Position numbers and translations under genes: made by a program
The notes under the pieces: generated by a model
What the model saw: only the letters and a program-made list of their open reading frames with translations
Told to the model about the DNA's origin: nothing
Databases searched by the model: none
Shown here: piece by piece, positions 4,509 through 22,806 of the stretch
How the letters are laid out: every line of letters begins with the position of its first letter
Numbering within the stretch: the first letter of the stretch is position 1
Assembly (NCBI GenBank): GCA_963754945.1
Contig: CAVWIG010000028.1
Location: 177,889 to 201,888 of the forward strand
Length of the DNA: 24,000 bases
Direction of reading: 5' to 3'
DNA from: Methanotrichaceae archaeon
Lineage (GTDB): Archaea > Halobacteriota > Methanosarcinia > Methanotrichales > Methanotrichaceae

Positions 4509-4928
4509 GAGATGGGATACCTTGAGGAGATCAAAGCGCGAGGACGGGCTGCCAACCCTTTCTTCCTCTTGATGGGAATCGTTGTGGACTCCTTTGGCGA
4601 TGGTCGATCAGAACTGTCCATGCAAGTGCGACCCGACATGCTAAACGGAGTCGGTTGGCTGCAAGGAGGTCTTTACACTGCTCTGTGTGATGAAGCAATG
4701 GCTCTGGCCCTCTACACAGCTCTTGAGAATGGAGAAGGCATTGCCACTATATCCGAGAGCACATCCTATCTTGAGGGAGTCAGAAGCGGAAAGATAATCG
4801 CAAAAGGCAGAGTTGTAAAGAAAGGAAGACACGTAGCTTTTACGGAGGGGTGTGTAAAGAAAGCATGCGGGAATGAAGCCGTCCTCACGCAGACCAGGGC
4901 ATCTTTTACAGTCATCAGAAAACCGTAA
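4509..4928 (+). CDS. PaaI-family hotdog-fold acyl-CoA thioesterase
   Basis: The track ORF 4488..4928 begins at a TTG; the first ATG is at 4509 (MGYLEEIKARG...). Family-typical features are NPFFLLMGIVVDSFGDGRSELSMQVRPDMLNGVGWLQGGLYTALCDEAM and the C-terminal GRVVKKGRHVAFTEGCV. Confidence 0.75.
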   Translation, partial: EMGYLEEIKARGRAANPFFLLMGIVVDSFGDGRSELSMQVRPDMLNGVGWLQGGLYTALCDEAMALALYTALENGEGIATISESTSYLEGVRSGKIIAKGRVVKKGRHVAFTEGCVKKACGNEAVLTQTRASFTVIRKP

Positions 4929-4974
4929 AGCATCTCCGGCTTGGTGGCAGTTGAGCGAAAAATGGTCCAAATGG

Positions 4975-5184
4975 TCAACCAGCACTGCGAAATCCTGTCA
5001 TTTCCTTATCGCCCATCTGTAGCTTTCTCACCGTATCTCCTGCTTCTCTTGCGTCATCCGCCCGAGCCAGAATCCTGACTCTGTCGATTTGCGTCTTTCT
5101 TCCGCAAGGGCAGGTCCTTGTCTTTGCTCCTTCCTGTACGTATAGGTGCCTGCCACAATTGCATCTAAAGACCAGGTAAGCCAT
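4975..5184 (-). CDS. Small zinc-ribbon protein (DUF1922-like)
   Basis: 69 aa, MAYLVFRCNCGRHLYVQEGAKTRTCPCGRKTQIDRVRIL, with a CxC...CxC zinc-ribbon pattern. It sits immediately downstream of rps8e on the same strand, which I recall as a common archaeal arrangement. Confidence 0.65.
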   Translation of the reverse strand: MAYLVFRCNCGRHLYVQEGAKTRTCPCGRKTQIDRVRILARADDAREAGDTVRKLQMGDKEMTGFRSAG

Positions 5185-10121: not shown

Positions 10122-10148
10122 TCTGGCTCTTCCTCGTATAACCAACAC

Positions 10149-10166
10149 GTATATCAATCTTTCCGG
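10149..10166 (-). promoter_or_regulatory. BRE/TATA-like promoter block upstream of tRNA-Arg
   Basis: The minus strand reads CGGAAAGATTGATATAC about 30-45 nt upstream of the mature tRNA 5' end. The same (C)GAAA(G/A)-n-TnTATA architecture occurs at the tRNA-His gene, the pentapeptide gene and the three repeat units at 21.1-21.7 kb. Confidence 0.4.
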
Positions 10167-19242: not shown

Positions 19243-19453
19243 TGGTTCTGACCTCACCAAGTAGTCTTGAAAAATCTTTACTACCCACGTTTCCAACACA
19301 TGAGACGAATTCTTGATTATTAGACATATGACCCATTATCTCCCCATCATAAGATCGGCTGATAGTATCGAATCTGGATTTAGGGGCCCTTTTGATATAT
19401 AAACCCCGTGTAGAGAGCTTCGTCCTGGTTTCAGTGGAGGGGAAGCTTTCAAG

Positions 19454-20572
19454 ATGGATAATCTTAAACGTCTCGAAGCTAATTTCAGCTCAAGAACTTC
19501 ACCGGCAAGAATTCACAAGAACAGTTTTCAGAGGGATGAAATGGATCAAGGTCATGGCTTCATGTGCAATAGCGAGAAGATAAGGACTACGATACCGGTT
19601 AAGGACCGGAACGTGTCAGATCTGGTAAAGGACATGGGATGCATGGGGTTTCAGGGAGGGCAGCTAGGGGCATCCCTGCGAGTATGGGAACGCATGCTTG
19701 ACGAGGATGTGACTATCTTCCTAGGACTAGCAGGAGCGATGGTTCCAGCCGGATTGGGCGAGTTCATAGCCTATCTAATTCGGGAGCGCCTTGTAGACTG
19801 CCTTGTCAGCACCGGAGCAAACCTCTTTCACGACCTATGCGAGGGCCTGGGGATAGTCCATTATCATGGAAGCGCTTGTGCAGATGACGCCTACTTGAAT
19901 GAGTGCAAGATCGACAGGATCTATGACGTCTTCGTATCAGAGATAGAGCTGCACAAGGCCGACAATTACATATCCGACTTCGTGAAGGCTCTGAGCAGAG
20001 AGCGTCGCTACTCTTCGCGCGAGCTCATGCACATGGTGGGAAAGGATCTGCCAGACACAACGATACTTGGGGCTGCGCACAAAGCCAACGTGCCTATATT
20101 CGTTCCGGCTCTGGGAGATAGCTCCTGGGGAATAGGGATGGTCATGGCCTACCGTGAAGGCCAGAAGGTTATGGTTGATCAGATCAAGGACGTGGACGAG
20201 ATCACGCAAATGGTAGAGAGATCCTCTAAAACCGGCGTGATCTACATCGGCGGAGGCGTACCTAAGAACTTCATACAGCAGACAGAAGTGATAGCCGAGC
20301 TGATCGGCAACTACTCAGGCGGCCACAGCTATGCTATTCAGTACACCACAGATGCGCCGCACTGGGGAGGACTTTCTGGCTGCACTTTTGAGGAGGCAGT
20401 CTCCTGGGGCAAGGTGGCAAAGGAGGCGAGCAAGGTGCAGGTCTTCTCCGATGCCACTATAACTGTGCCTGTAGTAGTCCAGGCCTTGAAAGCCTCGGGC
20501 CATGGGCGAAAGAGTCATCCGGTTTATGATTGGACTGAGTCAGACCTGAAGCTCAAATATGAGAGAAGATGA
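19454..20572 (+). CDS. dys: Deoxyhypusine synthase
   Basis: Motifs present are FLGLAGAMVPAGL, STGANLFHD, IDRIYDVF, IYIGGGVPKNFIQQ, and GGLSGCTFEEAVSWGKV containing the catalytic lysine. The start is uncertain: ATG 19454 (GGAGGGG about 11 nt upstream), 19541 (GAGGGA 5 nt upstream) or 19562. The later starts give a length more typical of archaeal enzymes. Confidence 0.88.
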   Translation: MDNLKRLEANFSSRTSPARIHKNSFQRDEMDQGHGFMCNSEKIRTTIPVKDRNVSDLVKDMGCMGFQGGQLGASLRVWERMLDEDVTIFLGLAGAMVPAGLGEFIAYLIRERLVDCLVSTGANLFHDLCEGLGIVHYHGSACADDAYLNECKIDRIYDVFVSEIELHKADNYISDFVKALSRERRYSSRELMHMVGKDLPDTTILGAAHKANVPIFVPALGDSSWGIGMVMAYREGQKVMVDQIKDVDEITQMVERSSKTGVIYIGGGVPKNFIQQTEVIAELIGNYSGGHSYAIQYTTDAPHWGGLSGCTFEEAVSWGKVAKEASKVQVFSDATITVPVVVQALKASGHGRKSHPVYDWTESDLKLKYERR

Positions 20573-20798: not shown

Positions 20799-20873
20799 TG
20801 GGGCCGGGACCGGGATTCGAACCCAGCTCGAGGGATCCACAGTCCCTCAGGATAACCACTACCCTATCCCGGC
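20799..20873 (-). tRNA. tRNA-His (anticodon GUG), with CCA encoded and G-1 not encoded
   Basis: The minus strand folds as GCCGGGA-TA-GGGT-AGTGGTTA-TCCT-G-AGGGA-CTGTGGA-TCCCT-CGAG-CTGGG-TTCGAAT-CCCGG-TCCCGGC-C-CCA. The anticodon loop is CU-GUG-GA and the discriminator is C73. The genomic base at position -1 is C. Confidence 0.9.
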
Positions 20874-20900
20874 GCGCCAGGGTTTTGACTCACTGCTGAG

Positions 20901-20916
20901 AGATAAAACTTTCCCC
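20901..20916 (-). promoter_or_regulatory. BRE/TATA-like promoter block upstream of tRNA-His
   Basis: The minus strand reads GGGGAAAGTTTTATCT, with 27 nt between the end of the TATA-like block and the mature tRNA 5' end. Confidence 0.4.
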
Positions 20917-21124
20917 GTCCGCGTAGGACCAATTTGCTACTTTCCATGGATTACAGGGTTACCAAATGTTTATGCAACGACACAACCAGGAAGCGCGGAG
21001 ATATCCACCAGCCGGTGTCAGACGAATTCAGTTTGTCATCGATAGATGAACTCAACTATCTTTTCCTTACACAATTTAGGAATCTGATATTGATTCATGT
21101 CTGAACCTGAGTATCGGGAAATGA

Positions 21125-21190
21125 AATGAGAAAAGGAGGGATAGCAAAAGTCAGTGATGTAGGAGGGATATGGTGACCGACTTTTGCCTT
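21125..21190 (-). ncRNA. Candidate small RNA, repeat unit 1 (hairpin with CCUCC loop and tail)
   Basis: On the minus strand a 10-bp stem pairs GGCAAAAGUC (21188-21179) with GACUUUUGCU (21152-21143), including one G-U pair. The 26-nt loop contains CCCUCCUAC (complement of 21161-21167). The tail AUCCCUCCUUUUCUCAUUU could act as a terminator. Boundaries are +/- 5 nt. Confidence 0.45.
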
Positions 21191-21211
21191 GTGCTATTAC
21201 GTCACTTGCCG

Positions 21212-21227
21212 ATTATAAAGTTTTCGG
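21212..21227 (-). promoter_or_regulatory. BRE/TATA-like promoter of repeat unit 1
   Basis: The minus strand reads CCGAAAA-CTTTATAAT, then a 23-nt spacer, then the first G of the hairpin. Confidence 0.45.
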
Positions 21228-21390
21228 TTAAGGCGATCAGCGTACTTAGCATCAGCATTTGGGATCGATTGTTTTCTCAAGAATATAAAAGCAAAGCTAG
21301 ATGTTAGGGGTTGTTTTGACTTTTCAGATGTAGCACTAAAGGAGGCGAATATCCCACAGTGGCCCTCGAAAAATCACCTTTGAGAACTCC

Positions 21391-21466
21391 AAAATCCAAT
21401 AATGAATAAGAGGGAGGCAAAAGTCTGTGGTGTAGGAGGGAGAAAATAGATATCGACTTTTACCTA
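21391..21466 (-). ncRNA. Candidate small RNA, repeat unit 2
   Basis: On the minus strand an 11-bp stem pairs AGGUAAAAGUC (21465-21455) with GACUUUUGCCU (21426-21416), including a U-G wobble that would be a C-A mismatch in plus sense. The 28-nt loop contains CCCUCCUAC (complement of 21434-21440). The tail is CCCUCUUAUUCAUUAUUGGAUUUU. Confidence 0.45.
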
Positions 21467-21486
21467 ATCTTAGTACGGCATATGAC

Positions 21487-21502
21487 GATATAAATCTTTC
21501 GG
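21487..21502 (-). promoter_or_regulatory. BRE/TATA-like promoter of repeat unit 2
   Basis: The minus strand reads CCGAAAG-ATTTATATC, then a 22-nt spacer, then the hairpin. Confidence 0.45.
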
Positions 21503-21574
21503 TAAGTATGCAAGAAAGCATAAGCTCGCAAATTTCCTGAAGGATTAATCAGTTGCAGACATCATTCATGGATA

Positions 21575-21637
21575 TGAAAAGGAGGGGGAGCAAAAGTCAG
21601 GGAACGTAGAAGGATGATTATGATTGCCTTTTGCCTG
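21575..21637 (-). ncRNA. Candidate small RNA, repeat unit 3 (more diverged)
   Basis: On the minus strand an 8-bp stem pairs GGCAAAAG (21635-21628) with CUUUUGCU (21596-21589), including one G-U pair. The 31-nt loop carries CCUUCUAC in place of CCCUCCUAC. The tail is CCCCCUCCUUUUCAU. Confidence 0.4.
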
Positions 21638-21659
21638 TGGATAGTTACGGCGTTAAACG

Positions 21660-21675
21660 AATATATAGTTTTCGC
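21660..21675 (-). promoter_or_regulatory. BRE/TATA-like promoter of repeat unit 3
   Basis: The minus strand reads GCGAAAA-CTATATATT, then a 24-nt spacer, then the hairpin. Confidence 0.4.
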
Positions 21676-21864
21676 CAATCGACGTACATAGATATCAGAC
21701 AGCCATAGAAGGACAGATATCCACAACAGTAATATTGACAGAGACACAAAGAACAATATGTTTATGAGAACCATAGGCGGCCTTCTTCGACGCCTCGGCT
21801 TTTCGGAGTGGCCGGGAATAGCGACATGAAAAAAGAACCATTAAATTGAGCGGACGCTAGTGAA

Positions 21865-22806
21865 ATGATGATTTACACCATTACCCTCAACCCTGCCCTG
21901 GACAGGACCATCTGGATTGATAGAATAAGGGACGATGTGTCCAATCGCATCATCGATGAACGGAGATACGCGGGGGGCAAGAGCATAGACGTCTCCAAGG
22001 TGTTGAAGAACTTCGGCGTAGACAACATCGCCCTCGGGTTTGTTGGCGGGTTCGCGGGAAGGGAGCTGGAGGGCAGGTTGCTCAACGATGGGATACAGAC
22101 AAACTTTGTTCGTGTCTCAGGTGAGACCCGTACCAACATCATAATACATGAAAAAGAGACCGGCAGACAACTCGCCTTCAACGCCCTTGGTCCTGAGATT
22201 CGTCCCAGCGAGCTGATGCAGCTCGTAGAGCAGATAGAGCTTCTTCCCTGTCCAGATGTTGTGACCATAGGAGGCAGCCTGCCACCCGGCGTCAGCCCTG
22301 AGATCTACCGCAAGATAATAATGTTGGTCGGCAGATGTCGAGCCCGTGTTGTCCTGGACGTGGATGGCCCTGGCCTCCTTTCTGGTATCAAGGCCCATCC
22401 CAACATCATCAAGCCAAACATTCACGAACTTAGTGAGCTGGTGGGGCACGATCTGAAGGAGATGAACGAGATAGTCGAAGCGGCCAGGCAGATAAACAGG
22501 GATGGTGTGGAGGTTGTCTTAGTTTCCATGGGCGCAAAGGGGATTCTGCTTGTTGCTAAGGGAGTTGAATGCGTCGCTATACCTCCTGAGGTAAAGGTGG
22601 AGAACACCATTGGTGCAGGGGACTCGGCGGTGGCAGGGTTCGTCTACGGCCTGGTCAACGGCAAAGACCTGAAGGAGTCACTTGTTCTTGCTGCCGCCGC
22701 AGGGACGGCTACGACTTTGCGTTTGGGAACCGCGTTGTCCAAGAAAGAGGATTTCCTCAATCTGGTTCCCCAGGTTAGGCTTAACGTATTGCAGGGCGGT
22801 GCTTGA
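21865..22806 (+). CDS. pfkB: PfkB-family sugar-phosphate kinase (1-phosphofructokinase / tagatose-6-phosphate kinase type)
   Basis: 313 aa. The N-terminus MMIYTITLNPALDRTIWIDRI...GGKSIDVSKVL is typical of FruK/LacC. The C-terminal TIGAGDSAVAGFVYGL is the PfkB signature. The stop codon lies 1 nt before the aldolase ATG. Confidence 0.88.
   Translation: MMIYTITLNPALDRTIWIDRIRDDVSNRIIDERRYAGGKSIDVSKVLKNFGVDNIALGFVGGFAGRELEGRLLNDGIQTNFVRVSGETRTNIIIHEKETGRQLAFNALGPEIRPSELMQLVEQIELLPCPDVVTIGGSLPPGVSPEIYRKIIMLVGRCRARVVLDVDGPGLLSGIKAHPNIIKPNIHELSELVGHDLKEMNEIVEAARQINRDGVEVVLVSMGAKGILLVAKGVECVAIPPEVKVENTIGAGDSAVAGFVYGLVNGKDLKESLVLAAAAGTATTLRLGTALSKKEDFLNLVPQVRLNVLQGGA

Follow-up and report, generated by a model that had tools for sequence, protein, structure and literature searches.

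The spacer between the tRNA-His and pfkB genes in a 24,000-nucleotide stretch of DNA from a Methanotrichaceae archaeon (contig CAVWIG010000028.1 of assembly GCA_963754945.1, positions 177,889 to 201,888; this whole stretch is hereafter called the window) harbors three related units on the minus strand, each composed of a promoter-like box, a hairpin and a pyrimidine tail. A preliminary description of the same DNA had read them as a small multicopy family of regulatory small RNAs (sRNAs). The observation itself is confirmed, and the family is real, conserved and multicopy, but it is far larger than was supposed: at least 170 units occur in 75 Methanotrichaceae assemblies plus the window, so that we are dealing with a large family and not with a local triplet. 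Judging from sequence, the units are very likely to be true RNA genes read from the minus strand. The mode of action first proposed for them, the masking of ribosome-binding sites (RBSs), is supported in part, and we favor it by a more modest measure.

Three Related Units in the tRNA-His/pfkB Spacer

The units occupy positions 21125-21228 (unit 1), 21398-21503 (unit 2) and 21571-21676 (unit 3), and the four elements initially described for each of them are all present where they had been placed. Every unit consists of a box that resembles an archaeal transcription factor B recognition element (BRE) plus TATA element, a gap of 23-24 nt, a hairpin at the very 5′ end of the predicted RNA and a pyrimidine tail. 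In minus sense, the common pattern reads (C/G)CGAAA(A/G)nnT(T/A)TATA, a spacer of about 23 nt, GG(C/U)AAAAG(UC)...loop...(GA)CUUUUGC(Y) and the tail. A covariance model run over the 24-kb window with its filters off returned exactly the three units, all with E <= 5e-9, scoring 63.1 bits for unit 1, 71.4 for unit 2 and 43.5 for unit 3, the latter with one non-standard pair.

In unit 1, the predicted RNA of about 60-65 nt (21125-21188) would start at G21188. Its 5′ arm (21188-21176) and 3′ arm (21155-21143) enclose a loop (21175-21156) with a CCCUCC motif at 21167-21162, and the tail UAUCCCUCCUUUU carries a second CCCUCC (21140-21135) followed by a run of U (21134-21131). The promoter region (21189-21228) shows the BRE/TATA sequence CGAAAACTTTATA at 21226-21214, with the 3′ end of the TATA 23-24 nt ahead of G21188, and then a conserved proximal element, TCGGCAAGTGACGTA. 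Unit 2, with a predicted RNA at 21398-21464 and a start at G21464, has the arms (A)GGUAAAAGUC (21465-21455) and GACUUUUGCC(U) (21425-21415), a loop CCCUCC at 21440-21435 and the tail CCUCCCUCUUAUU, while its promoter (21465-21503) combines CGAAAGATTTATA at 21501-21489 with TCGTCATATGCCGTA. Unit 3 (predicted RNA 21571-21635, start G21635) keeps a stem of only 8 bp (21635-21628 with 21596-21589) and a loop motif degraded to CCUUC (21613-21609), which lacks the anti-Shine-Dalgarno (anti-SD) core. Its tail CCCCCUCCUUUU is intact, with CCCUCC at 21586-21581, and its promoter (21636-21676) shows CGAAAACTATATA at 21674-21662 followed by TCGTTTAACGCCGTA.

The initial count of motifs needs to be narrowed on this basis. 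The CCCUCC motif was said to be present in every tail, but the tail of unit 2 reads GCCUCCCUCUU, where a CCUCC core (21417-21413) overlaps the last bases of the stem. The motif therefore occurs four times in the array (loop and tail of unit 1, loop of unit 2, tail of unit 3), not five or six. As for the stems, the minimum free energy (MFE) hairpins of units 1 (13 bp, -16.1 kcal/mol) and 2 (11 bp, -12.6 kcal/mol) are clearly better than those of shuffled sequences, with z values of -5.5 and -4.1, whereas the hairpin of unit 3 (8 bp, -7.4 kcal/mol, z of -0.6) is by itself no better than chance.

Size and Distribution of the Family

One genome per species was scanned with the plus-strand pattern GCAAAAGTC-N3-12-TAGRAGG-N8-30-CTTTTRCC, which gave at least 117 matching stretches where, by our own estimate, about 4 would be expected by chance. 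Among the matches listed, 116 of 117 belong to Methanothrix, Methanosaeta, Methanocrinis or metagenome-assembled genomes (MAGs) of Methanotrichaceae, and the remaining one is a chance hit inside a Desulfobacula gene; no Methanosarcina record appears among these listed matches to the exact pattern. A covariance model of the hairpin plus the tail (R1) recovered further copies outside the exact pattern, with scores of 40-80 bits on the forward strand versus 15-28 bits on the reverse. Up to six units per assembly were found, a figure that is a lower bound. Most units are singletons, and arrays of two to five units occur at 21 places. The units are intergenic, with neighbors in either orientation that are unrelated from locus to locus: among 104 downstream neighbors, 65 point the same way as the unit, at a median distance of 149 nt, and the other 39 are convergent.

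Among the variants of the family, there is a subfamily with a longer loop, two motifs CUCUCCCUCUACCUCCUAUAAC and the tail UCCUCCCUCCU (loci L003, L046, L051, L058, L072, L075, L078, L083 and L109). Because it includes Methanothrix harundinacea and Methanocrinis records, the family is not confined to a single genus of Methanotrichaceae. Another set of loci (L008, L016, L025, L038, L041, L063 and L071, and further L082, L084, L085, L097, L112 and L113) shares an orthologous unit that sits tightly between two convergent genes: the upstream gene ends with a stop codon (TAA) inside the TATA box of the unit, and the other gene has its stop beneath the RNA tail. Coding sequence on either side of this unit is conserved across species.

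No known element was matched in Rfam 15, where gathering and permissive searches gave nothing in the window beyond its two tRNAs; the best hit in the interval 20900-21900 was a Tetrahymena snoRNA with an E value of 6.3. Viral contigs yielded zero matches to the family. In a literature search of incomplete coverage, we found no paper describing the family, the sRNAs of Methanothrix/Methanosaeta or any regulatory RNA of Methanothrix. This family of sRNAs of about 65 nt has apparently not been described before.

Strand, Stem and Fold of the Predicted RNAs

The differences between stems of the three copies had been noticed to be G-U wobbles in minus sense, an argument that becomes stronger when the whole family is considered. 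Among non-Watson-Crick cells of the stem alignment, 69 hold a G·U or U·G wobble when read in minus sense and only 4 an A·C, which is the type expected from wobbles if the other strand were the RNA; when the terminal pair is left aside, the counts are 25 versus 2. This asymmetry establishes that it is the minus strand of the window that is under selection at the RNA level. The stem is also maintained in the homologs, as the 10-bp helix is paired in 99.4% of the cells of 141 distinct sequences. Three of its pairs never vary, six vary on one side only, and the terminal pair shows seven GC->AU cells.

The 5′-terminal helix forms in the MFE structure of 155 out of 161 units, and the CCUCC cores, which were claimed to be exposed, are predicted to be unpaired with a mean probability of 0.905 in this set. 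Most of the RNAs (139/161) carry two to four CCUCC, and the other 22 carry one, so that each of them would offer a C-rich motif complementary to Shine-Dalgarno (SD) sequences in an unpaired context. Sequence conservation in the single-stranded parts concentrates in the loop motif UCCCUCCUACA(Y)C (>=90%) and in the tail CUCCCUCCUU; positions +1 to +13 of the tail read CUCCCUCCUUAUU, with no G at all from +1 to +9. The 5′ half of the loop, on the other hand, varies freely, even among orthologs. The possibility of archaeal C/D box sRNAs was also considered and rejected: a C box (RUGAUGA) occurs in 0 of 170 units in RNA sense, and no unit has both a C and a D (CUGA) box on either strand.

Promoters

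The box CGAAARNTWTATA is found only three times in the window, always on the minus strand (21214-21226, 21489-21501 and 21662-21674), against 0.28 matches expected by chance. When family members are aligned by their hairpins, the consensus from -39 to -22 is C(C/G)RAAA-nn-TTWWWWWT-CG, and zero G/C occur at -30 to -27. The distance from the 3′ end of the TATA to the first hairpin G, which had been predicted as the transcription start, is 23-24 nt in 123 of 158 units. Such a distance would center the box near -27, the usual archaeal TATA distance. Position -1 is a pyrimidine in 82% of the units and +1 is G. Both the promoter and the CUCCCUCCUU tail lie outside the search pattern and are nonetheless conserved across the family.

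Both tRNA genes of the window were said to share this architecture, and the same geometry is indeed found ahead of them: boxes GGAAAGATTGATATA or GAAAGTTTTATCT on the minus strand (10122-10165 and 20874-20915), about 24 nt ahead of a start that is itself 4-5 nt upstream of the mature tRNA 5′ ends. Because of this likeness to the tRNA genes, the units can be placed in a stable-RNA promoter class, each with its own archaeal promoter. Both the promoter reading and the orientation are well supported at the sequence level, since the box is conserved, its spacing is 23-24 nt in most units and the tRNA genes are alike. A BRE/TATA element occurs in essentially all units, together with Y(-1)/G(+1), and we infer from these features that the units are transcribed independently.

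A further conserved element, with the consensus CG.c.AatG.cgta, is shared by most of the 168 units examined and lies between the TATA and the start. Its copies in the window are at 21190-21211, 21466-21488 and 21637-21661 on the minus strand, and a mirrored copy occurs at 21673-21686 on the plus strand; in the family, an inverted copy just upstream of the BRE is a feature of some subfamilies only. The element may be the operator of a shared regulator. A palindromic operator between TATA and start was considered, but it was discarded because the palindrome score is only slightly above that of shuffled sequences.

Conservation and Evolution of the Array

Locus L020, from Methanothrix sp. fen_7, shows the same order of pfkB, three units and tRNA-His. 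When compared with the window, the RNA of unit 1 is identical at 65/65 positions, as is the tRNA-His (GUG; window 20799-20873, minus strand) at 75/75, whereas the flanking spacers are only 74-77% identical and contain indels. Given full identity in unit 1 against 74-77% in the spacers, unit 1 is read as being under purifying selection. The RNA of unit 2 is 88% identical, without indels, and that of unit 3, 82%. Unit 3 of the window has lost the U of the stem GUC and the loop CCCUCC, both of which are retained in its L020 ortholog, and is a decaying copy. The tail of unit 2 reads CCUCCCUCU at 21408-21417 versus CCUCCCUCC in L020, so that two of the three window copies (units 2 and 3) have been weakened.

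A two-unit array is present in L012 (MAG OBJ2_061818_130_31), where positions 4915-4981 form an exact chimera when set against window 21128-21467: up to a junction in the loop they follow unit 2 (5′ half), and beyond it unit 1 (3′ half). This chimera points to recombination between units, through which arrays shrink, and presumably they also grow in the same way. In five further genomes, an array lies at 3.6 kb or less from tRNA-His, which stays outside the units as their conserved neighbor and marks the orthologous locus; as this neighborhood recurs across genomes, the array is an old syntenic feature. Between units 3 and 2, the spacer contains a block TAATCCTTCAGGAAATTTGC (window 21528-21547, minus strand) on which the window, L020 and L012 agree fully, amid sequence that varies.

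On its other side, the array is bounded by pfkB (21865-22806, plus strand). The longest open reading frame (ORF) for the aldolase that follows begins with a TTG at 22682 and shares 125 nt with the end of pfkB (22682-22806), but its real start is probably downstream, since the profile match begins at residue 43, and the overlap would be an artefact of ORF calling. Exact look-ups of the pfkB and deoxyhypusine synthase proteins of the window, and of a 45-aa ORF that opens within unit 1, found no identical protein on record.

A Putative Mechanism: Masking of Ribosome-Binding Sites

The CCUCC of the loops and tails is the anti-SD core of the 16S rRNA 3′ end. In the mechanism that we favor, a strong promoter of the stable-RNA type (BRE CCGAAA, then the TATA TTTATATA) would set the start at the first G of GGCAAAAG, and the nascent transcript would fold immediately into a 5′-terminal hairpin of 10-13 bp, with the conserved loop motif inside 20-35 nt of loop, to end in a single-stranded pyrimidine tail CUCCCUCCUU(A)UU. 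The unpaired CCUCC cores would then pair with GGAGG RBSs on putative target mRNAs. The 30S subunit would face competition for these sites, and translation would be initiated less often. With several paralogs in a genome, arranged in tandem at some loci, dosage could be raised or control be graded, and the conserved element between TATA and start suggests that they would respond to a common regulator.

Sites of the required kind are in use in these genomes, because GGAGG is enriched at gene starts: it precedes the candidate starts of 89 out of 623 long ORFs, versus 26-35 for unrelated pentamers of similar composition, with gene starts approximated. Pentamers overlapping the SD sequence are likewise raised. 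This ORF-start test was preferred to a cruder SD test, in which intragenic hits prevailed and nothing could be learned. As an illustration, and not as evidence of targeting, the tail of unit 1 would pair in silico with the GGAGGG leader of the deoxyhypusine synthase gene of the window with -17.8 kcal/mol, and a generic 16S 3′ end with -10.4 kcal/mol. In this ORF, the GGAGGG stands 12 nt 5′ of the first ATG (19436-19456, plus strand), although the true start is uncertain, as the NCBIfam profile match begins only at residue 43. A more specific version, in which the 5′ half of the loop would be a target-specific seed that includes an anti-start-codon CAU, was rejected and stands as a weak observation, since a CAU at the right spacing is limited to some 12 of the 47 loop clusters and the sequence varies even among orthologs.

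Several observations weigh against the mechanism as stated. A core of 5 nt would match very many mRNAs, which leaves specificity unexplained; the gene starts in the 856 kb examined offer no convincing site with extended complementarity to the loop or the tail, and genic GGAGG sites do not favor a GGAGGG context. The stem is so conserved in sequence that hardly any true covariation is seen, and the helix rests on invariance, wobble-only changes and thermodynamics. This conservation exceeds what a mere scaffold would need, and it hints at a protein partner or at some other role of the stem. Finally, the U/A-rich stretch after the tail contains no canonical oligo-T terminator, its T runs being at most 2-4 nt long in the majority of copies, and the predicted position of the 3′ end of the RNA is accordingly uncertain.

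Some of these points would also fit a decoy, that is, an RNA that would titrate a protein in the manner of CsrB through its invariant stem and CCUCC tail, with no pairing to mRNAs; the partner could be, for example, a protein that binds C/U-rich RNA or the 16S rRNA 3′ end. The conservation of the stem in sequence beyond structure (three pairs invariant, six changing only to G·U), the freedom of the 5′ half of the loop, the repetition of the motif within each RNA (2-3 times), the high copy number and the lack of specific mRNA targets would all suit titration, and the first two of these speak for a partner that recognizes sequence. However, the loci are linked to no candidate protein, their neighbors being unrelated from place to place, and RNA-RNA pairing is the simpler reading for a motif that is precisely the anti-SD core in genomes where GGAGG is used as an RBS. 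We thus give the decoy an outside chance.

More improbable is a cis-acting role, where each unit would be the promoter and 5′ leader of the downstream gene and the anti-SD would fold onto its own RBS. The frequency and closeness of co-oriented downstream neighbors would fit with it, and weak terminators would permit read-through, but more than a third of these neighbors are convergent, some with a stop codon under the tail. Moreover, tandem arrays have one promoter per unit, and the next feature in the window is either another unit or tRNA-His, which has a promoter of its own.

The preliminary description had also raised the possibility of a miniature inverted-repeat transposable element (MITE), and a non-autonomous mobile element of this kind, or a site acting at the DNA level without any RNA function, would be consistent with the high copy number, the near-identical cores at unrelated loci and the changes in array size through recombination between units. 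We consider it highly improbable, since terminal inverted repeats are absent and the unit ends are instead a BRE/TATA element and a pyrimidine tract, many species have the same paralogs at orthologous loci (as with the tRNA-His array, or the unit flanked by convergent genes), and the family has zero matches in viral contigs or Rfam. The strand-asymmetric wobble substitutions also speak of selection on an RNA.

The least credible candidate is a gene for a small protein on the plus strand, perhaps a type I toxin whose antitoxin would be the minus-strand RNA. It draws on a window GGAGGGAT-ATG that opens a 45-codon ORF (21170-21307), on GGAGG or AGGA followed by ATG at an SD-like spacing in units 1 and 3, and on an ATG in 56 of 161 units with peptides that share an M..DFC.. 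start. It was rejected because a start codon or the loop SD is missing in 68/161 (42%), an ATG opens an ORF of 20 codons or more in only 27/161, the shared "DFC" is conserved stem and promoter DNA read as codons, no plus-sense promoter is conserved (conservation stops at the tail), the wobbles would turn into A·C mismatches if the plus strand were read, and Pfam gave nothing significant. The antisense ATG after the loop GGAGG (window 21162-21172, plus strand) is in itself more frequent, at 35% of units, than a rough expectation of 17%. In RNA sense, it is a CAU located 4-8 nt 5′ of the anti-SD, and its excess could reflect complementarity to the SD plus start codon of targets, or chance.

Turning back to RBS masking, a broader version of it would make these RNAs a lineage-wide set of mimics of the 16S rRNA 3′ end, each with a hairpin, a CCUCC tail and a second CCUCC in the loop. 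Under one shared regulator bound to the conserved element between TATA and start, they would act as a global and tunable SD competitor, shifting the translatome between SD-led and SD-less or leaderless mRNAs. This is a speculative idea that we deem unlikely, but, if true, it would represent a layer of translational control not described in archaea.

Whatever their way of action, the units are a concrete and testable candidate for post-transcriptional control in the Methanothrix lineage. Methanothrix (Methanosaeta) is the main acetate-consuming methanogen of wetlands, rice fields and anaerobic digesters, and it is hard to grow. The family has tRNA-grade promoters, in the window unit 1 equals the adjacent tRNA in conservation, and the covariance model can be directly used for genome annotation and for mining public metatranscriptomes.

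Comparison with Known Systems

Within archaea, the closest precedents in terms of action are sRNA41 (Buddeweg et al. 2018), sRNA154 and sRNA162 of the Methanosarcinales methanogen Methanosarcina mazei, intergenic sRNAs that repress translation by RBS occlusion, the first of which acts at several sites within polycistronic mRNAs (PMC5867862, PMC6560208). The mode of action that we propose for the units is the same as for these three sRNAs. Compared by description and not by sequence, the units differ from sRNA41 in being multicopy, arranged in tandem arrays and, among the pattern matches listed, restricted to Methanotrichaceae. For its part, sRNA41 is reportedly a single gene conserved within Methanosarcina.

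The architecture and logic of the units match closely those of LhrC1-5. LhrC of Listeria monocytogenes, also a multicopy sRNA, carries redundant UCCC motifs both in its loops and in single-stranded stretches, and these motifs block translation by binding G-rich sequence ahead of the start codon (PMC4132741). There is no sequence relationship between both families, and LhrC is bacterial, about 110 nt long and expressed from sigma-type promoters, with an intrinsic terminator hairpin, whereas the units have one hairpin at the extreme 5′ end and an open 3′ tail. Some of the lhrC copies are in tandem, each with its own promoter. Other C-rich sRNAs from Firmicutes, such as RsaE/RoxS, FsrA and RNAIII, also target SD sequences through unpaired C-rich motifs (cited in PMC4132741), but they are single-copy bacterial RNAs with other folds.

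The 16S rRNA 3′ end, GAUCACCUCCU in archaea, offers a last point of comparison. Its helix 45 and anti-SD tail are likewise a hairpin followed by a single-stranded ...CCUCCU directed to the same mRNA sites, although the helix has no sequence similarity to that of the units and the resemblance would be functional only. In our favored reading, the family would then fall among the anti-SD regulatory sRNAs, where it stands out by its copy number, tandem arrays, tRNA-like promoters and restriction to Methanotrichaceae among the pattern matches listed, and it would carry the theme of redundant C-rich motifs for SD binding, known in bacteria from LhrC and RsaE/RoxS, to a multicopy family of archaea.

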